From: Paraspadella gotoi
Lineage: Eukaryota; Animalia; Chaetognatha
Assembly (NCBI GenBank): GCA_051294375.1
Contig: JBJCIZ010001666.1
Coordinates: forward strand, 1-64,000
Reading direction: 5' to 3'
DNA: 64,000 bases
Shown here: positions 1,872 through 24,554 of the stretch, piece by piece
Position numbering within the stretch: position 1 is the stretch's first letter
How the letters are laid out: the number at the start of each line of letters is the position of its first letter
Translations under genes and position numbers: made by a program
The notes under the pieces: generated by a model
Seen by the model: the letters and a program-made list of their open reading frames with translations, nothing else
Told to the model about the DNA's origin: nothing
The model's database searches: none

Positions 1872-2078
1872 AGAAGAAAAACCGCTGCTAACTGACGGTC
1901 GAACGAAAGAACTCTCTATCGTTTTTTTAATAGGTAAAAAAAACAGTAATGATTCATCGTATGTACATATATTTATAAATTATTATTGGCAAACAAATAA
2001 TCATGGTGCGAGAATTATTTATATACATATTTACAAGTATCAAAATTATTCCCCTTCTTTTTTTTTCCTAAAATTTCC

Positions 2079-3987
2079 TTATATTTCTCTTTGAGGGCGG
2101 TGGTATTTCGTTAACATTCTTTTTTCGGTGAATTTGATATGAGGGTGATTAAAGGCAAGTTTGCAACGAAAAAACTTCAAGTCCAAGGATTTTAAACTTT
2201 TTTTTGATAATTCAACAAGATACATAAAATGTCTATGACTACGTAACGAACATGATTTAGTATATTGTACATTTTGAAAAATATAAACTTTTTACGTAGT
2301 CCTTCATAACGATTTTTTCCGCCGCGGCACTATCCATCCTTTCAGTCTAATCTTTTTATCATAACTTTCTTTTTTATAGTCGAAAGTCAACAAACTGTAA
2401 GCTTTGGCCTTCAGACCGGCAAACTGCGCGACTATTTGATTCGGGGGTAAGTCGATCTTAAATTTACCATTAACTTTTTCTTCTTTTTTTGCCATTCGAA
2501 AAGAGTGTCCTTTATATCTTCATTCGGTGAAATAAGGATGATCTTTATCCAGATTGCTACGTCCAGTAGCTTGTGTAATTTAGCCAATGATTTATAAAAA
2601 AAATCCGGACCGTCTGACTTTGAATTGAATAATACTTTCAGCATACCGAATCCGTGTCGAGAGCGAGGACTCTCACGTTATTGTTCCCGGGGAAGGTGCG
2701 GAAACTGGGCAATATGAATTCGTGGAGGCATATCTGGAGGTAATATTTTGAAAGTCAAGAACTCCCATCAGTAAAGATGCAGTCGTCCAACAGTACTTTT
2801 TATTGTAAGATTTCGAGTAAATGCAATTTTCTGAAAGATCATCGCGTCGATGAAGGCGTGGTCGGATATGGTCTTCAGCGCCTCTCTTTTCGCTAGTAAT
2901 AAACTTAAAATTTAATCGATTCGCCCTCCCGCCGACGAGCTTGCCGTAGATTACGTTTGAGAGCAATTTTGCTCTAGAGCATTGTATTTTGCTCTTAGAT
3001 TTTGCCCTTAAATCGATATTTCCTTGCACGAACTCTCGAAACAGCACTTTTTGGTAAAAAAAAATAATATTATTGACTCTGCTTAGTTTTACCCCTTTCG
3101 TCAGCAAATACTTAAGAAAAACAAAATGTATGAGATAATGTTTTTTCTTGTTAAAATCTATGATTAATTTTTGAACTTTAGTGTTTTTCGATCCGGTTTT
3201 GGCCATAAGAATCTTAGTGAGTGGGGACAGTTCGTCTGGGTCGATGAGTCTGTTTTCGGTCAGAGGGGGGAACATCTCGAACAAATGCTTCGCCCTTTCA
3301 GTGTAAACTAAATCCACATTAAGAAAATAACCTATATTACCAAAATTATCTATGTTATTACCTGAATTAATTAAAAATTCTCTTTTAATCTCTTTCAGTT
3401 CCTGACCCCTCAAATATCGTAAACCGGCATAAGGCAATTTGTATTTTAATAAAATACTAGCGTATAAAGAATTGATATCTAAGGGCAAAATTGAGCAGGA
3501 ATCGTAATGAGGGGTGAGGTGATATGTCAGTCCTCGCCAAATCTCTTCACCCCCCCCTTTTTCCTCTCCCTGGGATCGAGGTTCTCCCGATTTAATATGA
3601 TTTTTTAACTCAAAATTAAAGCTTCTTTCCGCTTCCTCTAATAATTTATCGCTTATTTTAGTTATGTCTTCTGGGATGGGTTTGGTAATTAATTCGTCAT
3701 TCGACTGAGCATAGTTCACGAAGATCCCTGACCAACCCCCCCGTATCGATCGACGAATTTCTTTATGAATATCAATGGATCTGACGCATTCTAATTTTAC
3801 ATTAGATTTATATTTACATGCATCAAACGCAAAGGCTGGTAATGACAAATAACGAGTTATGTCTAATTTAAAGATAGAATATAATTCTTTTCTTAAATTA
3901 ACGATGTTGTCTAATAAGAGACTGGTGTCTAATTTCACGTAAATGCTGGCGTATTCCCCCAAATTTTTACATTTTAATTTATTATAA
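2079..3987 (-). pseudogene. polB: Protein-primed DNA polymerase B copy 1: intronless, 5'-truncated at ExoIII, frameshifted
   Basis: ExoIII-like NLGEYASIYVKLDT, SIRGG, motif A LDINSLY, GYFLNVDLVY, motif B KLLSNVIYGK (ORF 2673-3962). Motif C ALDTDS at ~2648-2665 and KVNGKFK/FAGLKAKAYS (ORF 2304-2495) lie in shifted frames. Confidence 0.92.
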
Positions 3988-4461
3988 CCAGAAAATTTAA
4001 AAGATACTCATCATTTACTCCTAATAATTGACGACCTTATAAACGTGGTTCCTAGTTTATGGATCGAAGACTTATATTGTAAAATAGTTCATCATAGAAT
4101 GGTCAGCGCTATAACTACGATTCACAATATTTTCGAAAAATATCCCGTCTCCTTTCGAAAAATTTCTTTAAATACCAACTTCATTTTGATCACAAAGTTT
4201 ATACGCGACCGCTCAACCTATTTTAAATTGTCTCAACAATTTTCTCCTCAGTGTCCTAGCCTAATATACGAAGCTCATCAGAATTCTCAATATATAAACC
4301 CGCCTTACGGATATCTGTTATTAAATTTTCAACTTTCTTGCCCCGAGAAATTAAGAATAACCACTAATATTTTACCGGACGACCCGGGAGATCCGGTAGC
4401 TTACTTGGAGCGGCATGACGTCGAAAAGAGGAAAGGGTCGACGGGAAGGCGTGGATATTGA
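3988..4461 (+). pseudogene. Genome-packaging ATPase (A32/FtsK-like), C-terminal half only
   Basis: The frame upstream of ORF 4045 reads PENLKDTHHLLLIIDDL (Walker B), then VHHRMVSAITTIHNIF, RKISLNTNFILI, PYGYLLLN and LRITTNILP, as in Polinton ATPases. No Walker A; a stop precedes at 3985-3987. Confidence 0.88.
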
Positions 4462-4852
4462 GAGGGACGAGATGGCGAGAAGGCGGTTGGAGTCGAATTT
4501 ACCTGAAATGAAACATTTAAACGGGTTAAAATCCAAACATCAAAAAAATTTCATTCAATCCGCGAAATCTAAAAGCCTAATTTATACTCTGGCCGAAGTG
4601 GCTCATAATTTATTAGCTTCCAACATTAAAATTAATCAAGATTTAATAAATAAATTGAAACCCTATAAAAAGCAAATTCATCTACTATCTCTCAAATCGA
4701 TTTCTCTGAAAAAAAGAAGACATTTACTCAGACGAGGAAAGTTTTTAGGAACGTTACTATCCGTTCTTCTACCTTCTTTAATTACTTTATCCGTTGAATT
4801 GGCTACCAGAAATAAAAATAAAACTTCGACTCGACGACAACAAAAATCATGA
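4415..4852 (+). CDS. Conserved small basic Polinton protein (GasderminX-like candidate membrane-active virion protein)
   Basis: AEVAHNLLASNI...LKPYKKQIHLL...SLKKRRHLL.RGKFLGTLLSVLLP pattern with a C-terminal hydrophobic helix, typical of the ORF next to the ATPase in animal Polintons. Confidence 0.8.
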   Translation: MTSKRGKGRREGVDIERDEMARRRLESNLPEMKHLNGLKSKHQKNFIQSAKSKSLIYTLAEVAHNLLASNIKINQDLINKLKPYKKQIHLLSLKSISLKKRRHLLRRGKFLGTLLSVLLPSLITLSVELATRNKNKTSTRRQQKS

Positions 4853-5766
4853 ACGTTAATTTAAAAAAAAATGAAGACGTTCCACCGCCCATGAAATATC
4901 TAGAAAAACTTTATTTGGTTCCCGCTAATCAATATTTATCTAAATTTAAAGAAAATCGGGATGAAACGAAAAAAAAGGATTCTACCTTATTACCCACTAA
5001 CTTAAACGAATCGGGTCTTCAAGATGTCCCACCCGATGTTAAAATTAGAAAATTTAACGATGAATTTATGAGGAATAAAAAGTTAAGCGAGAATGAAACT
5101 TCTAAAGAATGGTCTCAGTTACATCAGAGAATTCATCCCATTATCCAAGATTTGAGAAAAAACACCGAAGAGCGAATTATAAATAAATATGATAAAATTA
5201 AATTGGATCCATACGAAGAAAAAATTTTAAAAATAATAGATGAAATTCCTCAAGTTCATCGCACCGATTCTGACATATATTTTAGAGGCAACTTGGTTGG
5301 CAAAACGAATGATATAATAGATCAATTAATTAGTTCTGGTTCTACTTCTCCATTCGACATTCACACTCAATTATTTTGGATAATTAATCACGGGAAAATT
5401 GATGCACCGTTATTGTCAACTAACGAAAAACCGGACGCCATCGCTGCCGCACCAACCACCCCGGCTTCAACTAAAAAAAAAACTGTGGTCCCACTTCGAA
5501 AAAATACGCCATCTGTTAAAACGCCTAAAACCTCTGGTGTCTCTAAAATAGAAAAAAAACCTGTCCCGGGTTCTCTCACCAACGCTTCTTCTCCATCACC
5601 TATAAAAAAGAAGAAGAAACCCGTGCCGCTTTCTGCCGTTTTACCCGGGGTAAAAACTAGACAACAACAACAACAACAACAAAAGAAAAAAAAACAGGGT
5701 GATGACGACGACAACGACAACGACGACCTTGCCCTCCCACCCGTCTATAAAGGAGTCTTCGACTGA
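4849..5766 (+). CDS. Uncharacterised Polinton protein with Lys/Pro-rich tail
   Basis: 305-aa ORF with ATGA overlap to the previous gene. The N-terminal KLYLVP...PPDVKIRKF motif resembles the usual pre-integrase Polinton ORF. Confidence 0.7.
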   Translation: MNVNLKKNEDVPPPMKYLEKLYLVPANQYLSKFKENRDETKKKDSTLLPTNLNESGLQDVPPDVKIRKFNDEFMRNKKLSENETSKEWSQLHQRIHPIIQDLRKNTEERIINKYDKIKLDPYEEKILKIIDEIPQVHRTDSDIYFRGNLVGKTNDIIDQLISSGSTSPFDIHTQLFWIINHGKIDAPLLSTNEKPDAIAAAPTTPASTKKKTVVPLRKNTPSVKTPKTSGVSKIEKKPVPGSLTNASSPSPIKKKKKPVPLSAVLPGVKTRQQQQQQQKKKKQGDDDDNDNDDLALPPVYKGVFD

Positions 5767-6911
5767 TGAAATTAAAGATTCAATTTTAAAAAACATATAT
5801 TATAGCCCGGATCACCCGGGTTCATTCGGGGGCATCGATAATTTATACAGATATGCCAAATTAAAAATACCCCGGTTAAAAAAAAAGGATGTTAAGGACT
5901 TTCTCTCAAAACAAAACACTCACACTTTATTTAAAAAATCGCGTGATCAACCTAAACATTATCAATCAACGAATAAATTGTTTTTAAATGAAATTTGGGC
6001 CGCTGACTTGGTAGACGTGGGGACCCTTAAACCATACGGGAAACCTTACACCTTTTTTCTTTCCATCGTTGATCAATTTAGTTTTTGTTACGCTCGCCCG
6101 CTGAAAAACAAAACTGGAGGCGAGGTTGCTGCCGCATTTCGATCGGTGTTTGAGGCAAATAATCACGTAACTTGCATGCGGATGCATCTTGATTCTGGCT
6201 CAGAATTGTTTAACAAAGAAGTTAAAGGGTTAATGGAAGAATATGAAATTGAAATGTATACGACTTCCACGAATAAAAAAAGTTATTTAATCGAAAATTG
6301 CTGTATAAAGTAAAAACTGTATAAAGCTTGTTACGCTTTAAAAAATTACAATTGGCCTAAAATTTTACCCTTGGTAATTATATCTTTAAACTTAAAAAAA
6401 CGAAAAGCTTTGGGATGGTTATCTCCTTTTCAAGCAACCTTACCCAAATTTGAATCGCTTCTCAGACAAAAATTTCAAAAAGATTTGCGTAAACACAAGA
6501 AAAAATTTAAAAATATCAAGTATAACATTGACAAGGGAGATTTGGTCAGAATAAAATTGCCGTCAAAACCCTTTAAAAGGGGTTACCATCAGACCTTTGA
6601 AAATGAGTCTCATTTGGTCAAGGATCATTACGGAACTCCGAGATTGTACATTTTAGAAGGGAAAAAAAAAATACTATTTGTGGCAACTGCAAAAGATAAG
6701 TAAACCACCGGAACAAAAAGAGGATTTTCATTCCGTGATTAAAACTAAAGTAATAAATAAAACTACTTTGAGATCGGGACGAAAAGTGGGGGGAACTAGG
6801 CTTTACTTAACGAAACCGGCCAACGAAGAAAAGGCTTATTGGTTAACCAAAAAGCAATTGGATAATCTTAAACATGTTAGAAACTACGCAAGTCCAGTTA
6901 ATGTCGACTGA
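5699..6911 (+). pseudogene. int: Retroviral-like (rve) integrase, split by frameshifts (~6300 and ~6680)
   Basis: IYYSPDHPGSFGGIDNLY, WAADLVD, VDQFS, MHLDSGSEL, KKSYLIE (DDE triad), followed by GDLVRI...FKRGY and a chromodomain-like tail in ORFs 6371-6703 and 6678-6911. Confidence 0.9.
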
Positions 6912-7845
6912 CTCAAACAAAAGATTTGAAAATACACATTCAGAATTTAGAAACGCCTTACCCGAACCCATAATTTTAAATAAGAATTATGAAGTAGCCT
7001 TGCTACAAATAAGCCTCATCAACTCATCTTTTAACATAGAAGAAGCATCGAGCGAATATCACAAAGTGATTATATTTGATTGGCTGTACGAAACTCAAAA
7101 TCCCATAATTCCACAACTGAAATTATACGGAGAAGTGTATAATTTTATCCTCCCTCCTGGTCATTACGACTCTCCAGAAATACTATGCGACACAATAAAT
7201 CAGGCAATTTGGAAATCTATTCCCAGATTAAAAGATCAACCGATTTTAGAATTTAACAAAATTAGTAGATACATATATTTTAACGTTACCGATAAGTATA
7301 TCACATTTAGATTGTACGGAGCCATGTTGTTTTTGCTCGGAGCCGTCGCGGACTTGGAAGATGACATTTTTTTTACTTTGGGTAAAGACAAAAGCCCCGG
7401 CATCGTGAGCTACGATTATCCCCTGTATGACAAAGACGGCGCCCCGATTTTAGACAAAGACGGTAAAATTCAAATGGAAAAAAGACTATTGCGAGACACC
7501 TTGCAATCGGTGATCTTGAAGAGCGACGCGGTCAAAACCGATCGATTTTTTTTCAATCCAAATATGAATTTTAATTCCGTTTTGGCGATTTATTGCTCCG
7601 AAGTGCAAATGTGGATCACCGGGAGTTCTTATTCTAATTTGTTAAGAACGGTTCAGATAGATGAAAAAAATTTGGGAGGGAGACAAGAATTCACGTTTAA
7701 AGAATTAATTTTTCATCCGGTTTCTAAATCATTTATCGACACGATTTCTATTTCAATTCGCGACATGCGCGGGAAAAATGCTGGGCTAAGGGCGGGGCCC
7801 ACCATCCTCACGCTCGGGTTTCGCCCAATCAGAAATAGTATATAA
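6874..7845 (+). CDS. Minor capsid protein (penton, single jelly roll)
   Basis: S.DS...FENTHSEFRNALPEPIILNKNYEVALLQIS, LPPGHYDSPEIL, IYCSEV...GSSYSNLLRTV, FHPVSKSFIDTISISIRD...LTLGFR. The ATG at 6901 is the likely start. Confidence 0.88.
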   Translation: MLETTQVQLMSTDSNKRFENTHSEFRNALPEPIILNKNYEVALLQISLINSSFNIEEASSEYHKVIIFDWLYETQNPIIPQLKLYGEVYNFILPPGHYDSPEILCDTINQAIWKSIPRLKDQPILEFNKISRYIYFNVTDKYITFRLYGAMLFLLGAVADLEDDIFFTLGKDKSPGIVSYDYPLYDKDGAPILDKDGKIQMEKRLLRDTLQSVILKSDAVKTDRFFFNPNMNFNSVLAIYCSEVQMWITGSSYSNLLRTVQIDEKNLGGRQEFTFKELIFHPVSKSFIDTISISIRDMRGKNAGLRAGPTILTLGFRPIRNSI

Positions 7846-7880
7846 ACAATCGATCAATCGACGATTCATCAATCGGTAAA

Positions 7881-8423
7881 ATGATTCACACGATTAAATT
7901 CCCATTCAAACATTTACCACCTTATCTCAATACCCACTCTACCCGTCCCCCCCCTCAATCTCATTTTTTAAACACGCAAAGGGGACAAGGGGCAATATCG
8001 GGAATATTTTCAAAGTTATTTAGATTTATTCGACCCCTAATCTCTCAAACTACCAAGGGAATCAAACCGGCTTTAAAACTAGCAAAACCCATAGCAAAAA
8101 GGGTTGCCGGGGATTTATTACAAGCTAGTTCATCGGCGGCGGTTGGTGGATTAACGGATCTTATTTCTAAGAAAGGGAAAGAACCTAAGGAATCTTTTAA
8201 GAAAGCGGTTGAGACGGGGAAAACTAACGTTAAGTCCGCTTTAAAAAGGGGGGCGGATAGTTTGATGGAGTCTCTGACTACTACCAAAGATAAACCTATA
8301 AAAGTAAAACGTTTAAAAAAATCTATCAATCAAAAGGGAAAAGGAAAGGGGAAAAAAACAAGGAAAAAAAAAAAGAAGAGAAAGAAAAAAATTAATCCTC
8401 GGTTAAAAATATTTTCAGTTTAA
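7881..8423 (+). CDS. Basic core / membrane-lytic virion protein (pVI/pVII-like analogue)
   Basis: QRGQG followed by the amphipathic AISGIFSKLFRFIRPL; a second QKGKG precedes a poly-Lys tail. Lies between the penton and hexon genes. Confidence 0.8.
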   Translation: MIHTIKFPFKHLPPYLNTHSTRPPPQSHFLNTQRGQGAISGIFSKLFRFIRPLISQTTKGIKPALKLAKPIAKRVAGDLLQASSSAAVGGLTDLISKKGKEPKESFKKAVETGKTNVKSALKRGADSLMESLTTTKDKPIKVKRLKKSINQKGKGKGKKTRKKKKKRKKKINPRLKIFSV

Positions 8424-8449
8424 AAAAAAAAAAAAATCTATCATACAAA

Positions 8450-9823
8450 ATGGCTGAGGACAAAATGGTTCGACCCCCGGGATATCCGGTCAATCAAGAG
8501 TGTATAACGCAAGGATTGGATTTATTTTCTCCTAGTTTGAAACAGTATGGGATAATAGGGACCAGAGTCGAGGCCATTTATTGTTCCACGCCGATCACGG
8601 AAAGTTCTTCGGTGATTTCTTTTGAAGTTTCTCCATCGTCGATGTACACGGATCTTTCTAGTATGGTGTATGAAATAGACTTGACCATAGTTAAGGCAAA
8701 TGGCTCGGATTTGGCGGACTTTGCTCCACCGGGAGCCGATCACTTTGGGAACAGCGTCGGGTTTGAAGATGGAATTGCTTCAACGATTTTTTCCGGATTG
8801 AGTTTTCGGGTTAACGGGGTCAATATTTGCGATTCTTTTAATACCTACGCCTACTTGTGTCATTTCATCAATACCTTGTACTATGGAAAAGATTTAAAAG
8901 ATAATAAACTGCGAATGCAAGGTTTTTTCGGAGACAGAGAATTTGATCAAACCGGGGCTCACGACGCGGCTCCCGCCTCATCGTTTAAAACGCGAGCTTC
9001 TTTAACGAGTGGGAGTAAAGTCATACGTTTGTATTCTAACATTCAAACGGCATTAACCACACAGGGCAAGTTTCTACCTCCAATGTCGACCCTTAATTTA
9101 GACTTCGTTAAGAGCAATTTCAATTTCTGCGTGAGAAGCGACGCAGAAAATGCGGAATCTAAATTTAAAATTTGTATTAAACAAATGAAACTTTTGGTTA
9201 GACGAATCGATGTGATTCCATCGCTGAAGATTTCGTTAGAGCAGGAAATAAATAGCAAAGGAGGAGTGTTATATGGTTCACAAATTATGAGCTGTCGACC
9301 ATACGTCATAAATCAAAATGCCAAGAGTGTGTTTTTTGATGGAATATTTTTTAACAATTTAAAACCCAACACCATAATAATCGCCTTGGTGACCCAAACT
9401 GCATTTTTGGGTTCGGCGAAAAAAAGCCCCTTCGAATTTGGGCATTTCGATCTCCAATCTCTCAAGTTAACCATCGATAACGTGGTTTTACCATTTCCTT
9501 CCGGATTAGAGAATTTAGATTATAAAAACAAAAAATATGAATCCGCTTATTGGACGTTGATCAATCAACATTTTAAGTACAACAGTCCTTGTCCAATTTC
9601 TTACGACGATTTCGCCAATGGATTAGCGATTTACGCCATAGAAACGGGTAGTTATAAAAGTTTCATGGATGATCACGACGAACCGCGTCAAACTTGTACT
9701 TCTAGATTAGAGCTGGGATTCACAAAAGATTCATCGAACCCCGCTCTCGTCCTTTTGCTCATGACCGCCTACAGCGGAAATATTTTCTTAAATTCATCCA
9801 GAGACATCTCCATGGACTATTAA
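8450..9823 (+). CDS. Major capsid protein (double jelly roll, hexon-like)
   Basis: Intact 457-aa ORF: LDLFSP, YTDLSS, QGKFLPP, PNTIIIALVTQTAFLGSAKKSPFEFGHFDL, ISYDDFANGLAIYAIE, ending RDISMDY. Confidence 0.92.
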   Translation: MAEDKMVRPPGYPVNQECITQGLDLFSPSLKQYGIIGTRVEAIYCSTPITESSSVISFEVSPSSMYTDLSSMVYEIDLTIVKANGSDLADFAPPGADHFGNSVGFEDGIASTIFSGLSFRVNGVNICDSFNTYAYLCHFINTLYYGKDLKDNKLRMQGFFGDREFDQTGAHDAAPASSFKTRASLTSGSKVIRLYSNIQTALTTQGKFLPPMSTLNLDFVKSNFNFCVRSDAENAESKFKICIKQMKLLVRRIDVIPSLKISLEQEINSKGGVLYGSQIMSCRPYVINQNAKSVFFDGIFFNNLKPNTIIIALVTQTAFLGSAKKSPFEFGHFDLQSLKLTIDNVVLPFPSGLENLDYKNKKYESAYWTLINQHFKYNSPCPISYDDFANGLAIYAIETGSYKSFMDDHDEPRQTCTSRLELGFTKDSSNPALVLLLMTAYSGNIFLNSSRDISMDY

Positions 9824-9845
9824 TTAATTCCATAATTAATTAATA

Positions 9846-10400
9846 ATGTATTCCTTAGCCATAGATAAAATTTTGGGAAACGATCATTTCGCTGGAAAAA
9901 TATTTTTGGGGAGTCATCCTAGCGACAATTTACCCACCCCCATTAGTCCAGTTTGCGCAATCACCGCCAACCATTCGTCTTCGGAATCCGAAGGGAGTCA
10001 TTGGAGCAGTTTTTACTTCACTCCGGACAAAGTCGTGTACTTTGATCCCGTTGGTTCATCTCCTCTGGTGAATCCCCGATTTGAAAAGTATTTAAAGGAC
10101 AACGTTCCCCCTTCTAAGCCCATTTACTTCAACAATTTTCAATTGCAAAACGATTATTCGGCGACTTGTGGAAATCATAATATTTTATTCGTTCTTTATT
10201 CCGCGCGAAATTATTCGTTAAAAGAAATTTTAGAAGAAGTATATGAAATAAAAGAGAAAAAACATTTAAAAAATCCTTGGTACTTTGACGCCTTAGCTTG
10301 GTCGGTGATCAGCGCCTTCGAAGCCGACCCCACCCCTTTGGTCAACGAAGAAGCCTTTTTTTTCCCCCATTTCATCGAACAACAACAACAAAAAAAATAA
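9846..10400 (+). CDS. Adenain-like cysteine maturation protease
   Basis: Catalytic signature GSHW / YFDPVG / QLQ / TCGNH in a 184-aa ORF directly after the major capsid gene. Confidence 0.92.
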   Translation: MYSLAIDKILGNDHFAGKIFLGSHPSDNLPTPISPVCAITANHSSSESEGSHWSSFYFTPDKVVYFDPVGSSPLVNPRFEKYLKDNVPPSKPIYFNNFQLQNDYSATCGNHNILFVLYSARNYSLKEILEEVYEIKEKKHLKNPWYFDALAWSVISAFEADPTPLVNEEAFFFPHFIEQQQQKK

Positions 10401-10454
10401 ATAAAAAGAAAAAAAAAGAGTATAAAAGAAGGAAGAAGAGAAGAAAAAAATATC

Positions 10455-10972
10455 ATGTCTCAAAGAGAAGCGGAAGAAGGAAGAGAGGAAAAAAAAATTT
10501 TTAATTTAATCGAGAACGAAGACTCGGATCCCGGAAGTAGCCTCCACGACTCCGCCAACGGTTCCAAAGACTCCGGCGTCTACTTATCCGATAGCGATGG
10601 TCAAGAGGAGGAGGCGAAGGAGGAGGAGGCGATCGCACCCAGGTGTTGTTCGTGCCCATGCGCTCGGTGTCAAGGGCAAGGGACGCCGCCGGGGTTGCGG
10701 CGAAAGAAGAATATCGAAATGATTGGTGGAAGTGGGGTAGCAAGTGGCGCCAAGAGACGCGGTCGAAGGAAGACCCGAGGTGCATCCACAATGGCCAAGG
10801 GATTAACGGATCTGATGGCCGCGAGTCCAATGGCTGTCCGTCCAATTTCGAAATTGGAGCTTTATCGGCGCAATTTGCGAACTTGAGCATCAACGACTAC
10901 TCTGACGACGACAACGACGACGATGTCAACGACGAAACCGCCCTTCCCACCATCACACCGGCCGAGAGATAA
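10455..10972 (+). CDS. Small acidic, Cys-containing accessory protein (probably one gene with a frameshift near 10690)
   Basis: Two overlapping ORFs (10455-10886, 10643-10972), each protein-like at one end; contains DSGVYLS and CCSCPCARC. Confidence 0.5.
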
Positions 10973-11187
10973 AGAAACTGGATCTGAAGAAGCGAGGAAG
11001 AGGACGAAGAAAATAAAAAAAATGACAAAACAAAGTGAAATTCCCCCTCTCTCAAAAAAAATAGTATAAAAGTTGGAGAAGATTCGCATCGAACTTATTT
11101 TTTATCTAAAAAAAATAAAATTTCTCTAAAAAAAAACAACAAAAAAAAACCCGAGTGCAAAAAATCATCATCATCATCATCATCATC

Positions 11188-12483
11188 ATGAGTTCCAACG
11201 GATTCTTTCCCTTGAGCCCGAGAACTAGGGTGATCACGACGAGTTCCTTGTACACCTATTTCATCACTTTTTTAAAAGATAATGGAATCGCTACTAAAGA
11301 CAAAGTAACGATAAATGTGGGAGAATGGAAAAACTTTGAATATCAAGCGAACGAAATCGAGCGGGACTTGCGCGAGTTGGAGATAATAATGTGGCAATGG
11401 CCATGCGCGGAGCCCAAAGTCCGATCCCTTTCCAATCGGTTGAAAATTGTGGTTCACGTCAATCATTTTCGAGGCAAGCTGACCCCGGCAATCACGTTCA
11501 GAAGTTGTCTGAACGAAAACATTCACAAAAACAACAACAACAACATTAATGCGAACGAAGGTCCCGCGCACCCGGTCGCCTCTTTGCAACTGGCGGTGAC
11601 CTTGGACGTGGACGAATTCAAGACCTTGAGGTTTTTCTCCAGCGTCATAACTCGTCACATATCCGAAAACGTGACGCAAAGCTTTTGCTGTCGCAAGGAA
11701 GATGTGGATTCGGTGATCGCGCGAGTGAATCAAATGGTTCATTGTTTCGTGAACGGAGGATCGGTTTTTGGGAGTCGACTAACGATCTCTTTGGTGAATC
11801 AAATTTTGCCCGTCCCGAACCTTATAAATTCTTCTTCTACTACTACTACTTGTAGTAATCTATCGCTGCTACCTCTCCCTCAACCCATGGAGACTCAAAT
11901 GCAAGAACAGTCACAGATTCAAGTTCAGCAGCAACAGCAGCAGCAGCAGCAGCAGCAAGAGCAATTTTATCAAAGATATCAAGATGCCTCGGTTAATATT
12001 ATTAATAATAATAATAAATTTGGTATCGATAACATCAACAAAATCGATAAGAAAAAGAAGAAGACCCAACCAACCGCAACGATCCCAACCGTACCTAATA
12101 GTTCTGCCGGCGTCGCTGCGGCTTCCGCATCCGAGGTCGTTGAAGCCGCCGGAAATGGAGGAGTCGTCAGGCGTAGGAAGAATTGTCCTCCGTCTCGGAA
12201 GAAGAAGCGCGTCGAGACTCGGACGAAGGAAGAAGAAGTTGACTTGGTGGGTGCCGCCGCAATAGCCGCCGAAATTGAAGAGGCGATGGAAGGAGTAGTG
12301 GGGAAGGGAGAGGGAGAGGGAGAAGGAGAAGGAGAAGGAGAAAAAGAGGTGGAGATGAAAGAGGATCCAGAAACTCAACCGATGATGGCCGAGTGGGAAG
12401 AGTTGATGGGTTCTTCGGGGATGAGGGAAAGTTTGGAAGCGGACAAGAATTCCACGACTAATAGAAATGGAACTTGCCGTTGA
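11188..12483 (+). CDS. Tandem PC4-like ssDNA-binding/coactivator-domain protein with poly-Q and acidic tail
   Basis: NGIATKDKVTINVGEWKNF...IERDL and VHVNHFRGK...AVTLDVDEFKTL resemble two PC4 (whirly-like) repeats; RKKKR NLS. Confidence 0.6.
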   Translation: MSSNGFFPLSPRTRVITTSSLYTYFITFLKDNGIATKDKVTINVGEWKNFEYQANEIERDLRELEIIMWQWPCAEPKVRSLSNRLKIVVHVNHFRGKLTPAITFRSCLNENIHKNNNNNINANEGPAHPVASLQLAVTLDVDEFKTLRFFSSVITRHISENVTQSFCCRKEDVDSVIARVNQMVHCFVNGGSVFGSRLTISLVNQILPVPNLINSSSTTTTCSNLSLLPLPQPMETQMQEQSQIQVQQQQQQQQQQQEQFYQRYQDASVNIINNNNKFGIDNINKIDKKKKKTQPTATIPTVPNSSAGVAAASASEVVEAAGNGGVVRRRKNCPPSRKKKRVETRTKEEEVDLVGAAAIAAEIEEAMEGVVGKGEGEGEGEGEGEKEVEMKEDPETQPMMAEWEELMGSSGMRESLEADKNSTTNRNGTCR

Positions 12484-12807
12484 AAATCTATTGAAGGACA
12501 TGTGAAAGGAGAGGGAGGGATGGGAAAAAAATTTAGTGAACATTTTGTTAAAAAAAAAATAATTATCGCAAAAAAAGTACTATCTACTATTCTAACTTCG
12601 GTTGGTAGAAGAAGGAATTTGTCTCTTTTTTTTTTTATTTCGCATTGATAATTGATATTAATAATAATAATAATATTGTTGTAAATAATTAAATGAAAAA
12701 TACAAAAAAAATCACAAGATAAATCCGATTTAAACATGTTTTTATTTTTCTTTCTAATAATAATAATAATAATAATAAGACAAAATGAAAAAAAACTAGA
12801 TAGTTAT

Positions 12808-14908
12808 TTAGCGAGCTACATGATGATCATCATCATCATCATCATCATCATTATCATCGTTCGAACGAGAACGAGAACGAGAACGAAAGCGAGAACAAAA
12901 TGGATGGCCGTAAGGTAAAGAATGAAAACGACTAGTCCAAAAACGTTTCACTTCTAAATTGCTCAAAGAAACTTTGGAGAGAGTTTCGAAATAAATCGCG
13001 TGATCGATGGATCTGAATCCTCTATTAACGTTACTGATCGGGAGATCGGTCAACAAAGTCATCTCGTACTGTCCGTGATCGAGTTCGGCCTCTTTCACGC
13101 AACGCTGAACTCCTTTCGCTTTGACCACGTTAGTGATCTTTTTTTTGAGGGGCGGCGAAACCGAAGACGAAAAATCGCCACCGCCGCAACCGCCGCCGCC
13201 GCCGCCGCCCCCCTCCTCCTTGCCGATGCCGTCGCCATCGAAGCCGCCACCGCTGCCGCCGGCGCTACAGCCAGCGCCGCCGCCGCCGCCGCCCGCGCCG
13301 CTCTCCGTTGGCGGACGACGACGATGATGAGAAAGAAGAAGAACCGCATCCTCGCTAGCCGAAGACGGCACGACACTCCTCTTATCCCCTTGCCCCCCGC
13401 CGCGCGCGCGCCCGCCTGCGAAAAAAAAACTTTGTGTGAGTGAGGGGAGAGAGAGAGAGGGCGAGAGAAAGGGAAAGGAGAGTTATGTCGGATATCGGAG
13501 CGCAAGGCTCGGATACGTTATTACGCATCGGACCGGACTGACCGGGTCAGATCGGACCGGAAAAGGCGCGGCGTGTGGGTGCGGGCCTCCGTGCGGGCGT
13601 GCGACCGCGCGTGCGACCGCGGGTGCGACCGCGAGTGCGACCGCGCATGGGCAAACGGATTTCGGCTTGCGTGTTTGCGCACGCACGGATATCGGCACGC
13701 ATGCGCATTTAAAAAAGTTTTTCACTACCATCTTTCTTTCTTACCGATGATTGATTTTGATAGACTCGGACGTTCCCGCGACAGATCCAAGACCCGTTGA
13801 AATTCGGCTTCCCAATCCACGTCTTCCATCGCGGGGATGGGGAGAGGTGATAAGGGGGGAGTGGGTGGACTCGGTAGAACTCTCGGATCGTCCCTTTGCG
13901 CCGGAGGCAATTCGAAGGGCCACCTGAAATGAAATGAAATGATTAGGATGATTGAGTGAACGAACGAACGAACGAACGAACGAATAAACAAATGAATAAA
14001 ATTTTTTCTACATTTACATTTTACCTGCGAGGGGGATTGACTGGCGAATCGATGATTTCCAAAGAGTACAGCTTGGGTTTGAGAGCGATGCAGGAGACCA
14101 TAAAACGATCCTTCATCTCGTCCTGAAAAAAAAAAAAATGGTTAATGTTTAATTATATAAATCATAATAATAATAATAATAAGAAGAAGATTTCTCTCTC
14201 TCTCTCTCTCTTTTTCTTTCTCTATTTTTTTTTTCTCACCTTCATTTTTCCAACTCGATTTTTGTTGTGATCGGCCCACAACTTGAGCATTGGCATGGCG
14301 TCCAAGTTTTCGCTCCAAAAACTGTGAGAGGGCGAGCTGAAAGACGCGATTATTTTGTGTTTTTTTTATTATTATTAATTTTTTTTCAAAACTCAAAATG
14401 AACGCGCCTTACTAGGAAGCGGCAAAGTCCGTGATGGGCGCCAGGAATTTGAGATCTCTGTAGAACGAAGCCCGTGGATCGTTGTATTTCACGTGATACA
14501 CGAAAGAATCTGAATAATTAAATATATAATGATAATTCATTCATTCATTCATTCATTCATTATTTTATCCATTCCCCTCCCTTTTTCCTCACCGGTATCG
14601 TAGAACATGAGAGAGACTTGCACGTCTTTCCTTTCCGGTGGAAACGCTTCGGAAGCCAAAACCACATGTACTCCAAGCCAACCGTTTCGCGTGGTCCAAT
14701 ATTATGGCTCGGTGAGTTCGAGATTAAGGGTTAGGTGGGTAGCGGGGAAAAAGGGGAAGGGAAGGGAAGGGAAGGGAGGGGAGAGAGGGGATAAAAGGAT
14801 GTAAGGATGAGTGTGAGGGAATAAACGGTGGTGGTGCGTAACCTCGCGTTAAAGAAAAATCTCAGTTCTTTCTCTCGAAATATTTATTATTATAATTTTA
14901 ATAATTAA

Positions 14909-14940
<32 letters not shown>

Positions 14941-16262
14941 ACATTCACCTCCTACGTAGTTAGCTTGACGGATGTTAACCTCGTAGTTATGATTTTGAAC
15001 CAAAAAAAGCGTTTCGGAGATCGGTTTGACCGATTTCATTTCCGGTCGCAATACATATCTCTTTAATTGCTTCGTAGTATTAGCTACTCTGGTAAAACAA
15101 TACCTAAACGGCGACTCGATAAATTTTCCATAATTTGAGTTTACTATCAACTTTGGGATTATTTTGCCAAATTCCGTAGTAGCCTGATTGCGCTTTTCCG
15201 TGTGATAATCGACAAAACTCTTAATAAAATCTCTTTGAGCGAACGAATAAACCGAATATATCTTCTCTAATTTTAATCCTAATTTAAGAACGGTAGCCAA
15301 ATTTCTATAGTAAATAAAATAATGATCTTTGTCATTAAGGTCCGCGATAAGTCTAGGGGTAATATTCACTTTTTGTTTGTATTTACGAGAAAGGAAAAGC
15401 TGAAAAGGACTCAATTCCTCATTTTCTATCTTTCTTTTTCCCGTCAAAGGAGGATACTTGTTTAAGAATAATTTTACATTATCCGGAAAAATAATTTTAA
15501 TTTCGAGAATGCATCTGAGATTAACCCAACAACGAGTAAAAATATAACTAAAATTAATAAAAATGATCGAATCTTTTGTTTTTTTTTTTTTCATCGATCT
15601 CTCGCGACACGCCACGTGTCGAAGAAAAACTAAAAAACCCGAATTATATTTTTAAAACAAAAGACTCACCCGCGAGATTCGCGGCCCGTCCAAGTCAAAT
15701 GCACGCCACCCTCCGTGATGTCTCGAAAGAGAGAATCGATTTCCGCTTGAGAATACTCGTAGAATTCTCCGGTGGGTAAATACTCTGATTGACATTTGCC
15801 ATACCTCGAGGACAGTAATAATAATTATATATTAATAACGGAGATAATGTTTAATGATTAAAAAAAAAAAGCCATGTGTCAAAAAATGACTATGATATAT
15901 TAAGAATACTAAGTATTAAAAGTACTCACAAATTTGTAAAGTCCCAGTATGACAAAAATTCCGCAGTGTCCGAGTTTTCCAAGTGCCCCGCTTCCGTCGA
16001 AATAGCGTAATTCAAACGAGATGACACGCCCGCTAGTCCACCCCTGAGCATCGACTAAAAAAAAAAAAAAAAAAAAAAGCGAAAGAGTTGAAACCGTATG
16101 ATGATGAAAAAAAATCGCGAAAAAAGAGAAAAAAAAGAAAAAATTGATTTCACTCACTTTAAAAGCATAATAAATATGACTTTCTTTTTCGCTGAACAAA
16201 TGAAGTTTGCAATTGGTCGTTTTCAACATGACTTGGAAACTGAATGAAAAAGATAAAGATAG

Positions 16263-16300
<38 letters not shown>

Positions 16301-19300
16301 GGAAGCAACGTCATTGGTTCAATCTCGATAACGTGACAGCATCTCAGCAGCAGCAGCAGCCGTATCAATAGGGAAAGGATTGTTCATTCATTCATTCATT
16401 CATTCATTCATTCATTCGATATCTTCTCACCTAAACGATGGTAGAGTCAAGAAGTGGCAAATATCTAATTGATATTGGTCGTAAGAGCATTGGCGAAACA
16501 TCTGAAACCCGCACTCGAGAAACAATGTGTCTAACGCGCAATAGAATAATGTGAAATTTGCAAGGTTCTTTAGTTGAAACTTTTCAAAAATTTCTAAAGC
16601 GTTTGAGTATGCCTCGTCCGAGATTTCTTTATTGGTAATACTATTGAAAAATGCTTCTTTGGGTGGGATTTTAGTTTCGTGGGCATTACTTAAACTGATG
16701 TAATCATAAAAGAACCCCATTTTCCCGGTGTTAATTATATTAAACAGTTTTTTGTCATATCCATTTTCTTCAAAAAAATTAAAAACTGAAGCGAAAACGT
16801 CTCTCGGATCTTTTTTTCCCTCACACTTGGTACAAAACTCGACCGGGTTATCTCCTTCGTATCGACACTCGGTGCACAAATACTCAAACGTATCCTTATT
16901 CGTTAAAGAAATTATGGCGTCCAAGCTGCTTGGAAGAAATTTATAAGTGTCAACGAACTTAGAACGACATATATTTTTGCAGTTGCATTCATCTTTCTCA
17001 ACCTCTCGAACTAATTGCTCCAATAAATCGCCTTCATATTCATCATCATCATCATCATCATCGCTACTCGAGCTGGTGTCATCTCCGTAAATGCTTTCAT
17101 CATCATCATCATCATCATCATCATCTTTCGATCCTCCTCCTTTGTTCTTCTTCTTCTTACTCAAATATTTATCTTGGCAATTGGAACAACGCCAAATAGT
17201 TTCAAAAGTTATCATTTCTTGAGAGCTTTTAGACAGAACGTTTATTAATTTTTTTAAGGCTCCTTGAGCATTATCATCGGCTAATCCTTGAATAATTAAA
17301 TGCTCATCAAATTTATCGAGGTTGTGTAAGTAGATCGGTATGGATTTACTCTCAAAGTATTTTAAATTACAAGACGAACAGCTTTTTCCCCTGTAGTTAG
17401 AAGGGGGGGGTAAGAAATGATCGTGATCTCTACATCCGGGGTCTGACTCGGTAAAAAGTTTATTGCAGATGAAACATCGAGTGGTCATTTGAAAATCTCT
17501 TTCATCCGCATCGGTCATGTGCAGAGGATACGGATTACCGAATAAAACTTGAAAAATTTTTTGCATTTCATCTCTCATCGCGATGCAAAAGTGTGTCGCT
17601 GCGTCTTTACCCCAATAATAACGGACTCTGTTAAATTCGGGATAGGAAAAGTTTGCCGAAACTATGTAAGAATAAGCGATAGGATACAATTCGCACTCTC
17701 GTTGGAGAGAGAGGTGAAGTTTGGAACAGGGCTTCAAAAAACTGCAGATTGTACACTTGGTCACGTGGCGAATATCATTCGAAGATTTGACCCATGGAAA
17801 CCTCGCCTTAATTTCATCGGGCACAGATTCTAAGCCAGGGTCTGGTTGAGGAGAAACAAACGCTTTGGTTCCTCTCTCGGTTTCAAAGTCGGCAAATACG
17901 AGAATTCGTCTATACAGTTTTGCTTCGAAGCGAGTAAAAGACAAAAAAGAGTTTTCGGGTGAAAAACGAATGGCTTGTTTGATCTCGTGTTCTCTACACA
18001 AACGTTTGTGTTTGGTTAGTAACTCTTGCTTCGTAAAACACATTAAGCAATAATAACAAACTGATACTTTTGATTTGTGACCACCGTAGTTAGAAGCAAC
18101 GAGACGAGAGAGATTTGTAATGGCAATTACGTGGCGAACTGTTTCATTATTTTTCAAGGGAAGTAATAAAAGATTAACGATGGTTATTCCATCATTTTCA
18201 ATTTTTGAAGAAATTTTATATGGAAAAAAAATCAATCTGCGACCAATTTTACTTTTTTTCTTCTTCTTTTTTTCATTATTTTCTTTCTTTCTTTTCTTAC
18301 TCTTTTTAGTGTATTGATAAATGTTAATTGCTAGCCAAGAATTTCGTTCCTCAATCTCAATTATGTCATCGATACTCAGTGGTCCGGTCAAATGACCCAC
18401 ATCTAAGGATGGTAAAAAACGAAAATAACTAGTTTTTCTGTTTTTATTAGATGAAACTTTAGTATGAAACAAGGCCGCTAATATCGAATACAAAACGCAG
18501 TTGTCTCTTTCGACAGTTTCAATAACATTAATCGTAGCCTTTTTAGTGGATATAATGGGATCTGTATTTTTAAAACAACCAATCAAGGTGCCTCGATTAG
18601 CTACCTTAATGATGGTCAAATCAGTTCTCAATATGGAGTCAAAAACTAAATTACTTCCCGATTCGACCTTATCTTGCGTCAAAATAGAGACTCGGCTCAA
18701 GGTTTTCTCCAAACTTTCGTTCAAGTCTGATCCTTGATACAACATTCGACTGGGATTATCAAAATAAAAACCCAAGTGAGTTACTTCGCCAGTACTAACA
18801 TTTGTTTTTCGAAAACGAATCAAAAATGTGAGATGGTATTTGATGGTTAGATATTTGTCCAAAAATTCTTTCAATAATATCTTTAACTGATTTCTTAAAT
18901 GATAAAGTTGAAATTCGTAATCTCCTAAAAAGTTAGATTTATCTTCATCTTCATCCTTAAATTTTAACTCAATGGTTTGAATAATATTTTTTTTAAACTT
19001 TTTAGATACGATATCAAAATACTCGGAAAATAATTTATCATCCTCTTTTTTCTCTCTCTCTTTCTCCCATAGTTCTTTCTTCTTCTTCTTTTCTTTTCCT
19101 TTCTCTTTCTCTTTCTCTTTATCTTTCTCTTTCTCCTCATTTTTTTTTTCAACCCTTTTCCCTTATCTTTATTTATCCCACTAACCCCTTTTCCTCGCTG
19201 AACGATCGATTTTTTAAATCCTGGTAAACCCCAAAACTGGGTCGAAGTCCCTTGACTCGCGCAGCTACTAATGCCCCCGCCGCAGCTGCTGCTGCTGTTA

Positions 19301-19527
19301 AAAATGCCGCTGTTCGATCCTTGGAATACGTCTGGTGAGATGTCTGCCGAGCTTTCGCTCGAATCGAATCTAGGAAAATCTTTTTGACTATAATCGAATA
19401 GTATATTTTGTTTTGTCGACAGATCGACCGGTCGATCTTCGTCGCCATTCTCTCCTTCCCCGATAGAGTCATTTTTCATTTTTGTTTTTTTCTTAACGCT
19501 TAAATCTAAAGGTTCATCGCCTTCCAT
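12808..19527 (-). CDS. polB: Full-length protein-primed DNA polymerase B copy 2, with vOTU-like and endonuclease-VII-like domains, interrupted by 10 spliceosomal introns
   Basis: Exons 19527-16431, 16239-16158, 16054-15930, 15804-15670, 15514-14949, 14707-14593, 14509-14413, 14336-14240, 14122-14025, 13923-13745, 13415-12808. Motifs ADFET, HNLDKFD, YCALD, SMLRGG, YWDFTNLYG, KLIVNSNYGK, FYDTDS, VGKMKDE, LKPKLYS, KAKGV, SLPYGH. Two apparent indels (A-run ~19140-19149; ~14670-14680). Confidence 0.93.
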
Positions 19528-19588
19528 GTTTTGTCTGTAATCATTAAAAAATTTCAAAATAATTTTAATGTTTTTTTATTTTTCATAA

Positions 19589-20467
19589 TTAACAATTTAT
19601 CTTGCTCTTTGTTTTAAAAGAAGAAGAAGGAGAAGGATTAAAGGGTGGAAATAAGTTAGTAAATTTTTTAACTTCCGATATACTTAACAATGAAGTAGTA
19701 TAGATTTTCTGCATATCATTTATTTCTTTATCATACATACTATAAATATGATTATTCATAGAAGCAAAACAATTCTCTATATCGATTAAATAATTATAAA
19801 ATTGAAAATATGTATCATCGTAAAAAGATTGAGCCATAAACCTCAAAGATTTGTTAAAAGTATAACTTATCAAAATTCGGTCAAGAATTATCTTAAAATG
19901 CCGCATTCTCGTTTGGTTTAATCGTAATGTTACAAAATTCATTTTCAAGACCTGAACCAAGTGTTTATTTAAATCTACATTATCGAAAGGAGGTTTTTCA
20001 TTTTTAAGCCTTTTAACCATCACCACGAATTGATGTTTCATTTGGTCAAAGTCAAAAAAGGAAGAGTTTTTCAGTTTCTGATATTCCTTTTCCAAGTGCA
20101 GTAGACCCATGATGAATTGGTTCACGTGAGGTAACACATCGCACATTACACAATTCGTTTCCTCGGAAGGAATCATCTTGCACGTGAGAAGGTCCAAGTA
20201 GCACGTTTGCATTATACCAAAAATCAGCATCAAATTTTCGCATAGCTTAAAAGTTGATTGAACCAACTTTTCGCACATTTCCCTTTTCTCAGAATCATCG
20301 TTCATTGATTGATGAAATGCCGTAATGTCCAAATCCATGGGCGTGACATTTTGAAACGAGGTCAACAAATTGGTATCATCATCATCATCATCATTATCAT
20401 CAATGATAGATTCATCAGTTGTTTTTTTTTAATTCTCAATCGTGGGATCGATTTCAATGTCACTCAT
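19589..20467 (-). CDS. Uncharacterised viral accessory protein
   Basis: 259-aa ORF 19589-20368, extendable to an ATG at 20467 across an indel in a homopolymer (~20422-20430). Helical, with a CVMC motif. Confidence 0.6.
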
Positions 20468-20551
20468 TTTATTTTTTTTAAATTTTAACCAAAAAACTAA
20501 ATCAAAATTATATATACAAATATATACATGTAAAAAAGTATCTTTATTTTT

Positions 20552-21370
20552 TTAAACATCGTTAGTAGAATCGATGGGTTCGGTATCGGAATGACCGCTT
20601 TCGCGACGGTGTCTTAAATATAACTCGGTTAAGCTCTCGGGATTAAAAAGAATCTTTTCTTTATTATCTTTAACGGTTAGAATTTGAGCCTTTAATAAAT
20701 CGTAGACCAAATCAAAATAATCTTGTTCATCAAAATCTCCAAGTGCGCAATCGCACAAAATTTCCCTCGTACACGATTTGTATTTAAATTGAGAAGAAAT
20801 ATTAAAATTTCTTTCCATGTCATTCGAAAACTTAATCTTTATTGTACTAAGTTTAATGTAATTTTCAATAGAAAAAAGTGATTGATAATGAGATAGAGAA
20901 AAAGTGTATTCGCTCAAAAAATGAGTGGTGTCTATTGAATAATAAAACGGGGTAGCTATAATATATTTTTGAAAAATATCACAGAGTCTTGATATTTCAC
21001 ACCCTATTTCAAATACGAGAGAAAACAATACTTTCTTTGGTTGAGCTCGATTATTATCATAATTATAAGTCCTAATCGCCTGATTAATAAAATCCATGTC
21101 AACGGTCAAAACGGGTTCGAGCATATCCAAACAACTCTTCAAATGATTAACGTCTAATTCTTCAAAATCAAAAACGGTAAAAAAGTCTTTCTTATAGGTT
21201 TTAATTAGTTTTTTCCTTTCGTAAGCCACTTCCTCCTCATTTCCTGGAATCGTCGTGAGTTCTTTCAGCTCGTCGATTTCGCTATAACGCCTATGCCTTT
21301 GTACAGTGTACTGACGAACTTGCATGTCTGTCACACATCCGCGATTGTTAATCTTTTCATCGTGAACCAA
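20552..21370 (-). CDS. Uncharacterised viral accessory protein
   Basis: 272-aa ORF in AT-rich sequence, same strand as its neighbours. The true start is probably further upstream (~21550) across a frameshift. Confidence 0.6.
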   Translation of the reverse strand: MVHDEKINNRGCVTDMQVRQYTVQRHRRYSEIDELKELTTIPGNEEEVAYERKKLIKTYKKDFFTVFDFEELDVNHLKSCLDMLEPVLTVDMDFINQAIRTYNYDNNRAQPKKVLFSLVFEIGCEISRLCDIFQKYIIATPFYYSIDTTHFLSEYTFSLSHYQSLFSIENYIKLSTIKIKFSNDMERNFNISSQFKYKSCTREILCDCALGDFDEQDYFDLVYDLLKAQILTVKDNKEKILFNPESLTELYLRHRRESGHSDTEPIDSTNDV

Positions 21371-21816
21371 TATGCTCCATTGATTTTGAACGCGTTCCGA
21401 AAGAGTCTCGACATGGGAAGGAAAGTCTTTACGAAATTCGGTTCACGTGTACTAAAAGTTCTAGTACTTGAAACATTTTTATTGATAAAAAGTTTCTTTC
21501 GATCCGTTGGTGACTAACGGAAAATCCACCGTTCGAAATTTCACCATTTTCGGCCATGTTTATGGTTTAATTCTAAAAAATTATAATGAATTTCATTGAT
21601 CAAAAATATAATTCAATTTTAATCAAACTCATAATTTATGATATCAAAGAAGTTAAATAATATTGCTAATGTTTAATTTATAATTAAAAAATTATTAATA
21701 ATCAATATTCCCAATAATCAATATTCCCAATACAAAAAATCAATGTATTTAATAATTAAGCTTTTTGTCTAATCATCATTTTTCCCAAATAACAAAAAGA
21801 TTGCTACAAAGCAATT

Positions 21817-22587
21817 TCATTTAACTCCTTTCACATTCTTTTTACAGTTCGCAACGAAAAAAAATCGAGAAGAGCGATTAACTCTGTCCTTGGTCAGAGA
21901 CAATCCGAAACAGACAGGCGAACAAAAGAACAAAGAGCTAGAATGGGTTTCGTAAACGTATGGTTTTATCTGCATGGTCGCCTTCGCGACGGCCGAGGTT
22001 TGCGGACGAAAGACGCTGATGGCATAAGCCAAATGACTCGAAATCGGGAACTTCATGCCGGATAAACTATCCACGTTATGCGCTAAACTTTCTTTCTTGT
22101 CAAAGTTAGATTTTAAATCCCCTTCGTCCCACATCTCGATCAACTTCCGGGCTTCTTCGTAAGATATGAACAGCTTCAATGGACCAGAAGCCTTCTGCAC
22201 GCGGTCGCTAGACCCCGCCCCGAAAAAGCGTTCCTTAGACACTTTAAAATATCCCTCGCCTCCTTTCTTGTGTTGAACAAAACAGTATTGAGACAAAGGT
22301 TTGATGATCGAACTATAAAAAAAATATAAAACAAAAACCTTACACTATCGTATCGCTAATCTAATTAATATCATTATGAGATACCTGATTCCTTGTACAC
22401 TCGAAATATCAAACGATTCTCCCGCGGTGCTAGGATGGTCATTTCTGTTTATAAATGAATATGCAAAAAACCCATCTTATTTGCATATTCTTTAAGAAAA
22501 ACGCTTGCGCAAAACCCTTCTCTTAAAAAAACCCCTCACCTCATTAATGACACTGGAGTGGAAACGCTTCTTTGACGAAGCATCTGA

Positions 22588-24550: not shown

Positions 24551-24554
24551 TTAG

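Follow-up and report, generated by a model that had tools for sequence, protein, structure and literature searches.

A decayed Polinton with two distantly related protein-primed DNA polymerase genes, one intronless and one predicted to be spliced, in the chaetognath Paraspadella gotoi

In vertebrate Mavericks (Polintons), the protein-primed DNA polymerase gene (ppolb) and the ATPase gene (atp) are described as neighbours within one module, the virion genes are given in the order int-mcp-pw-Mcp-pro, and intact copies are reported to be intronless (PMC8097293). Hybrids of polymerase and virion classes are described among adintoviruses (PMC8502044), and replacement of the polymerase (pPolB) by recombination has been proposed for nematode Polintons (10.1101/2023.08.22.554363). 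For polisuviruses, a 2026 preprint describes several replicases per genome, tandem integration, and accretion with deletion (bioRxiv 10.64898/2026.10.13.758929). Intervening sequences are reported from Polinton-like elements in the form of introners in dinoflagellates (eupolintoviral elements; PMC12166617) and of group I introns in cryptophytes (PMC12220804), while for the elements of PMC12721341 it is reported that splice sites were not found. The terminal-protein and vOTU domains of such polymerases are treated in 10.1101/2024.03.18.585575. Here we describe a locus within a stretch of 64,000 nt (the window) of Paraspadella gotoi contig JBJCIZ010001666.1. The locus is a broken composite: a decayed Polinton with two distantly related pPolB genes, which we call pPolB-1 and pPolB-2.

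With animal Polintons/Mavericks (Alpha-class adintoviruses), as described in PMC8097293 and PMC8502044, the locus shares a PF03175 pPolB, an rve integrase and a polymerase lying beside what is here a probable ATPase. The run of genes from integrase through the probable minor capsid, core-like and probable major capsid proteins to the putative protease also agrees with theirs (PMC8097293). Taken by itself, such a gene set would suggest an animal host (PMC8502044). Unlike these elements, it carries two pPolBs, a broken ATPase-like open reading frame (ORF), a broken integrase and 14 predicted spliceosomal introns, and no terminal inverted repeats (TIRs) or end motifs were found. With two polymerases, introns and no TIRs, it is not an intact Polinton. 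More than one replicase per locus, degraded endogenous copies and a route of accretion and deletion are features that it has in common with the polisuviruses as the preprint presents them, one contig there bearing two transpoviron-like units (10.64898/2026.10.13.758929). The polisuvirus replicases are, however, described as mainly of different classes and often bracketed by repeats, with pPolB paired with a DDE integrase (10.64898/2026.10.13.758929), whereas here both replicases are pPolBs and the second block is spliced and has neither an integrase match nor bracketing repeats.

The nematode pPolB1 and pPolB2 Polintons resemble the locus in combining distantly related pPolBs with similar virion modules (10.1101/2023.08.22.554363). 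Each nematode class is, however, presented as a separate element with its own polymerase, and the accessible part of that account describes none with both and no spliceosomal introns (10.1101/2023.08.22.554363). Spliceosomal-type introns inside Polinton-like elements are likewise described for the dinoflagellate eupolintoviral elements (PMC12166617). Those introns are characterised as recent, transposon-made members of host introner families (PMC12166617), whereas the introns predicted here (83-329 nt) are without a long repeat in the window and belong to a polymerase whose relatives also look spliced. A literature search covering few subscription journals turned up no account of spliceosomal introns in the polymerase of an animal Polinton, and none of a locus where an intronless pPolB accompanies a spliced one, although Figure 6 or the supplements of the polisuvirus preprint may hold a two-pPolB case.

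The window is gap-free (no N) across 1-27406, the 16 N gaps of the scaffold all lying to the right of 27406. Its left block (2079-12483) comprises 11 genes, beginning with the minus-strand half of pPolB-1 and continuing on the plus strand from an ATPase-like ORF to an ORF ending at 12483. The right block starts with pPolB-2 and continues with further minus-strand genes; viral-type DNA, with more spliced genes, thereby extends to ~25.4 kb, beyond the two polymerases and the virion module to which the original prediction had confined itself. No intron was seen in the 11 genes of 2079-12483, against 14 predicted in three genes of 12808-23414. A single polymerase and intronless core ORFs, as in a Polinton, are therefore a property of 2079-12483 taken alone and not of the whole locus. 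Comparison of the left and right flanks gave no significant inverted match indicative of TIRs with (AG)3 or (AGT)2 ends. One candidate pair, 1688-1745 against 26204-26260, scored 56, below the 66 and 64 obtained with unrelated TC-rich tiles (444 tiles), and was gone after masking.

The presence of two divergent pPolB genes on the same (minus) strand, claimed in the original prediction, was borne out by PF03175 matches and by mapping to a polymerase profile of 33 long relatives (1187 positions), along which both genes follow the order of the motifs. Core identity between the two is 27% (90 of 336 columns), and the contrasting motifs that had been quoted, LDINSLY and KLLSNVIYGK in pPolB-1 against WDFTNLY and KLIVNSNYGK in pPolB-2, were recovered. 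pPolB-1 (2079-3986, minus strand) is intronless and broken, as had been stated; beyond that, half of the gene is missing. Only the 3' half (palm to C-terminus) is present, ending at a seam at 3986/3987 that had previously gone unnamed. The PF03175 match (2673-4007, E 4.7e-16) is above the cut-off, and the gene maps to profile positions 651-1179, positions 1-650 of the 1187 being lost. Searches of the window revealed no match to the missing part and no further piece of polymerase. The reading frame is open from 3986 to ~2790 and is then divided into at least four pieces by frame breaks or stops. TC-rich runs with short repeated units occur to the left of pPolB-1, at 530-850 and 1630-1870.

Read evidence was drawn from the contigs of four DNA runs (of eight matching runs listed) from two studies, compared with the window over 1900-8300. 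The likeness cut-off was 85%, which may hide more diverged capsid genes, and three of the four were not the best-matching run; one run may be the source of the assembly. In all four runs, two contigs follow pPolB-1 to 3986 and then diverge from the window with letters that, by eye, continue the gene, and other copies extend beyond 3986 on both sides. Contigs without a single difference from the window span 3986/3987 in run X2 (30 letters on the left) and run X6 (23 letters), both below our 31-letter bar for bridging; these seam-crossing contigs come from two studies. Median summed depth to the left of the seam is 9-42 times that on the right, and the lowest-depth polymerase bin has 8-18 times the depth of the exact-copy contigs, contig depth not being a copy number. 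pPolB-1 is a truncated member of an abundant multi-copy family, which extends leftwards at least to 1900. The frame breaks at its 3' end are clustered, the 12 best-supported of 93 indel rows all falling within 2050-2834, where other copies differ from the window and where X6 is without any contig matching the window version at several sites. These dense breaks may be either a local assembly error or real decay.

The loose ends, the zero-difference contigs and the depth step mark 3986..3987 as a deletion or fusion seam that sets the pPolB-1 half against a truncated ATPase-like ORF. A sister virion module, ~86-88% identical and untruncated at 3986, was found in all four runs (3986-8265), its depth being 2-3 times that of the exact copy, and it extends upstream of 3986 by 755 letters in X1 and 225 letters in X6. 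The exact copy of the virion module had the lowest depth in each of the four runs. There is no sign of its amplification, and since it is at the lowest depth throughout, the composite is not shown to have multiplied.

pPolB-2 (12808-19527, minus strand) had been described as intron-rich and full length. Profile mapping and reading of splice sites support both attributes, the second as regards span, with ten predicted introns and profile positions 9-1181 of 1187 mapped in order along the DNA, but the gene is not intact. The 11 predicted exons are 19527-16431, 16239-16158, 16054-15930, 15804-15670, 15514-14949, 14707-14593, 14509-14413, 14321-14240, 14122-14025, 13923-13745 and 13415-12808. A PF03175 match above the cut-off (E 2.4e-6) lies in the frame of exon 5 (14908-15651). 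The frame that starts at ATG 19527 shifts in an A-run near 19150, within exon 1, and exon 6 is out of phase with the acceptor that keeps a conserved ILD motif; acceptors that would restore the phase mostly have poor pyrimidine tracts, and all of them skip the motif. Both frame breaks may be mutations or assembly errors.

All ten predicted introns of pPolB-2 have GT-AG ends, and in each of them two or more frames contain stops. Phase is kept at nine of the ten joins, for which the chance would be 0.0004 had the sites been fixed beforehand, though some were picked with the protein in view. The predicted joins rebuild the motifs around RGG, DFTNLY, GCILE, YDT/DS and KMK/DE, and the predicted intron 14510-14592 splits the catalytic YDT/DS motif. 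Judged from sequence, the introns would be of U2 type, with GT-AG ends, preserved phase and interruption of conserved coding sequence. Two of the acceptors are the unusual CGAG. ExoI-III and polymerase motifs A-C are kept in pPolB-2, as are the regions that viral pPolB has at its N-terminus on the terminal-protein side and on the protease side. In the N-terminal vOTU protease region, which is deleted in pPolB-1, Cys and His positions align by eye with those of relatives, with no family match. A low-complexity insert of ~150 residues, encoded by exon 10 and the first part of exon 11 (13137-14025) and itself interrupted by two introns, lies in the C-terminal region of pPolB-2.

Neither polymerase is a recent copy of the other, since both stand on long, unresolved branches (3.09 and 2.81) in a core tree (45 rows after 16 short relatives were dropped; quick search). 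The N-terminal half of pPolB-2 groups with protein clusters P0003/P0238 and P0004 in a fast tree (57 of 59 rows; Shimodaira-Hasegawa-like approximate likelihood ratio test (SH-aLRT) 99.6). These proteins, which derive from other, public assemblies, share the Cys-rich inserts of pPolB-2: the Cys-rich stretch after ExoI has 66-68 residues in this clade versus 11-29 in 20 other measurable rows, 35 rows being unmeasurable by the pattern. By eye, P0238 reads through an intron-like stretch and P0004 stops mid-domain, in both cases where pPolB-2 has no intron. The nearest relatives of pPolB-2 thus also look spliced, and because P0238 and P0004 appear interrupted at other positions, splicing looks like a trait of the lineage and not an event of this copy.

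Synonymous codon use did not distinguish pPolB-1 from the virion genes (p 0.48). That of pPolB-2 is unlike theirs (p 0.01) and agrees with that of its neighbours (p 0.47), all of these comparisons being weak and belonging to a set of 15 uncorrected tests. Three scans of viral contigs with the capsid gave no relatives; the corresponding scan with the polymerase gave one distant element (L003, 23%), and a metagenome scan gave two short loci only, both without polymerase.

The virion module (3988-12483) lies entirely on the plus strand. At its left edge, 3988-4461 is a probable packaging ATPase that has lost its 5' part. The label relies on a Walker B-like stretch read by eye and on position; the sister copy continues 5' of 3986, no Walker A pattern occurs in any frame of 3600-4500, and the ORF has no significant family match. 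Two open ORFs without a family match (4472-4852 and 4849-5766) occupy the place of Maverick accessory core genes. The rve integrase (5702-6911) was identified by PF00665 (E 6.9e-7, slightly below the cut-off) and by tblastn to L003. It is broken by a stop at 6311-6313 and by a frame change near 6680-6700, the stop being covered by zero-difference contigs of both X1 and X2 and the frame change by one of X2. The integrase is dead and the locus is a fossil.

To the right of the integrase, gene order as far as the capsid is the same in a marine relative, L001. An open ORF at 6874-7845, with 30% identity over 324 aa to the same-place ORF of L001, is by its position a probable minor capsid protein (penton), and it is followed by an open ORF for a basic core-like protein (7881-8423; tblastn to L001, E 7e-6, same gene order). 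The probable major capsid protein (8450-9823) has 2851 unnamed relatives at E<=0.001, the best at 34% identity; one of 14 aligned members matches the jelly-roll domain DJR-like_dom (E 0.0016), and the ORF itself has no PDB sequence match and no phage match. An open ORF for a putative adenain-like cysteine protease (9846-10400; Peptidase_C5, E 0.018, below the curated cut-off) is followed by a low-complexity ORF with an apparent frame break in the three-frame reading (10455-11100) and by an intronless ORF at 11188-12483. The last had been called PC4-like, a label that no search upheld: Pfam, PDB, PHROGs, Atlas and Foldseek gave no match. Single-sequence folds of the two PC4-candidate genes were of low confidence, with pLDDT at 39.5 (11188-12483) and 34.9, and no mutual likeness was detectable. 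NCBIfam yielded chance matches only.

Between the convergent 3' ends of this ORF and pPolB-2 lies a spacer of 324 bp (12484-12807), a possible fusion point. Its 21% GC is like that of other spacers, and it carries a poly(A)-type signal for either side (minus strand, AATAAA; plus strand, ATTAAA). An AT-rich spacer with no visible terminal repeat had been predicted and was found, with none of six known end motifs present and no match elsewhere in the window beyond low-complexity words. A TIR with a 6-bp target-site duplication, the boundary that would have spoken against the original prediction, was sought at 12483-12808 and did not appear in the sequence. Both sides of the junction occur in the same runs, with word shares of 0.80-0.89 (four runs, one study) and 0.33-0.64 (three runs, another study), which attests presence and not linkage.

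Polymerase replacement, a two-polymerase virus and fusion of a capsid-less spliced replicon to a Polinton had been put forward to explain the arrangement. Fusion fits best of the three, given two more spliced genes in the second block, the lack of an integrase or capsid match there and the separate clade of pPolB-2. A working two-polymerase virus is not supported and fits none of the readings that we considered: half of pPolB-1 is deleted, the ATPase-like ORF is without a Walker A pattern, and both the integrase and pPolB-2 are broken. Replacement by recombination may have been a past event.

The account that we tentatively prefer, at a little under an even chance, is that an intronless Polinton with an internal deletion became joined, tail against tail, with a spliced replication block from a different lineage. 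We prefer it because pPolB-1 adjoins the ATPase-like ORF, the left part is intronless and codon use agrees. The seam at 3986/3987 would be the internal deletion within one element, and the second block would have integrated beside or inside the right end of the first by accretion and deletion, the ends between them having been lost. While active, pPolB-2 would have relied on host nuclear splicing as a trait of its lineage. The composite would now be unable to integrate, package or copy itself, and it probably never spread as a unit.

Several observations weigh against this account. Depth over pPolB-1 exceeds that over the virion genes 9- to 42-fold, and the read contigs contain one sister virion module only; the step fits an origin of pPolB-1 in a different, abundant family, though the 85% cut-off could hide diverged capsid genes. 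At 12484-12807 no fusion is marked by a relic TIR, an end motif or host DNA; both genes finish cleanly there with their poly(A)-type signals, and the junction looks co-adapted. No relative carrying both a capsid gene and a polymerase was found. The codon-test value of pPolB-1 (40.7) falls within the range of pPolB-2 blocks of the same size (32-84), and the virion genes and the second block have a similarly light load of breaks, those of pPolB-1 being dense. Strongest among these points are the step in depth and the cleanness of the 12.5-kb junction. They favour the converse pairing, in which pPolB-2 and the virion genes make up a single native Polinton with one polymerase and the pPolB-1 half, from an abundant family, was fused at 3986 with loss of the left arm.

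We regard this converse pairing as unlikely, though it is the alternative to be taken most seriously. The seam at 3986 is the only one with read support and depth steps down exactly there, while no boundary is visible at 12484-12807; convergent modules are, moreover, described as the rule in vertebrate Mavericks (PMC8097293). In three runs, 11000-20000 keeps 0.86-0.89 of its words, like the exact-copy virion genes, and some window letters of pPolB-1 are absent from all four runs. It would nonetheless require that a polymerase of foreign origin arrived next to the ATPase, where pPolB usually lies. The introns cease abruptly at 12.8 kb, codon use points in the opposite direction, and the depth step may be an effect of the 85% cut-off or of polymerase-end derivatives that belong to the same family.

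It is doubtful, and a small chance in our estimation, that an animal Polinton took in a mobile replication module, without capsid genes, of an intron-rich viral lineage, replicated for some time as a single element with two protein-primed polymerases and then dropped its own, which would make the locus a missing intermediate and the swap a step into dependence on the host spliceosome. Replacement caught in the act, in which an active Polinton took up the spliced pPolB-2 block, replicated with both polymerases, lost pPolB-1 and later died, is slightly less probable still. It would explain why the convergent junction is clean and has poly(A)-type signals on either strand, and also why pPolB-2 retains ExoI-III and motifs A-C where pPolB-1 is more damaged. 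Precedents are pPolB swaps between Polinton classes (10.1101/2023.08.22.554363) and elements with a second replicase (10.64898/2026.10.13.758929), as these sources describe them. However, the deletion took the pPolB-1 half together with the 5' part of the ATPase-like gene and so did not neatly remove a redundant gene; the composite is not flanked by a pair of TIRs, and the exact copy is at the lowest depth.

A misjoin of two unlinked loci by the assembly at 12.4-12.9 kb is quite improbable. The spacer is low in complexity, the scaffold has its N gaps further right, and read-contig support is confined to 1900-8300, which leaves the join outside; against this, 1-27406 is free of gaps, both flanking genes end intact, and the same runs contain the two sides (word shares up to 0.89, again presence and not linkage). 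That pPolB-2 is a domesticated host gene which gained introns under host selection and merely adjoins the Polinton is very improbable: although it has ten introns, a 150-residue low-complexity insert and a low apparent copy number, it also has two frame breaks, orphan and RING genes (some with stops) as neighbours, the N-terminal regions of viral pPolB on both the terminal-protein and protease sides, and relatives in other assemblies that share its inserts but have their interruptions elsewhere.

So far, the exchange of polymerases between Polintons has been inferred from trees, accretion with later deletion being a proposed route. Such a model predicts intermediates of this kind, with the old pPolB and a new one at a single locus, and the locus may be a snapshot of polymerase swapping in these elements. 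It also points to a lineage of Polinton polymerases rich in spliceosomal introns, which ORF screens with a long minimum ORF would miss. This significance is limited in that the locus is dead, multi-replicase loci have already been described, and the join between the halves is that of the assembly, the read contigs covering 1900-8300.

Beyond pPolB-2, the second block contains two orphan minus-strand ORFs, 19589-20467 (with an early in-frame stop) and 20552-21557 (5' end ambiguous). For an orphan minus-strand gene at 21817-22885, without a family match, three GT-AG introns are predicted, each of them in phase; its exons are 22885-22857, 22698-22540, 22444-22385 and 22312-21817. A RING-finger gene follows on the same strand (23030-23414; RING families at E 2e-4 to 0.05, below cut-offs), a single predicted in-phase intron completing the finger. 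With its own polymerase and no capsid-like match among the scanned ORFs of 19.6-25.3 kb, the block (12.8-25.4 kb) resembles a capsid-less or transpoviron-like replication module, but one lacking a DDE integrase and terminal repeats of its own: no rve match and no bracketing repeats were found in it. The last viral-type coding DNA is likely to be 24185-25333, comprising a small ORF and a repeat-rich ORF that is S/T-rich on the plus strand and acidic, with an internal stop, on the minus strand. The repeat-rich ORF (24600-25300) has a cluster of six TGACGTCA sites and of 11 GACGTC sites, out of 24 of the latter in the window.

At the right edge of the block lies an imperfect palindrome of 275 bp (25635-25909; 77% arm identity), with a folding energy of -75.4 kcal/mol (z -13.5; 0 of 100 shuffles). 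It may be a terminal structure of the element or a host miniature inverted-repeat transposable element (MITE). A host-like spliced gene with a predicted membrane segment (26440-27406) starts to the right of the viral-type DNA and enters an N gap. Further right, diverged copies of a long ORF lie in inverted orientation at 31177-32820 and 54900-56000; by eye they are retrotransposon gag-like, and they have no Pfam match. Long nested inverted repeats of foldback-like appearance surround N gaps at 28366-39093 and 42703-48862, and a tandem array with a unit of ~49 bp, partly duplicated at a spacing of 1093 bp, occupies 49311-51332.

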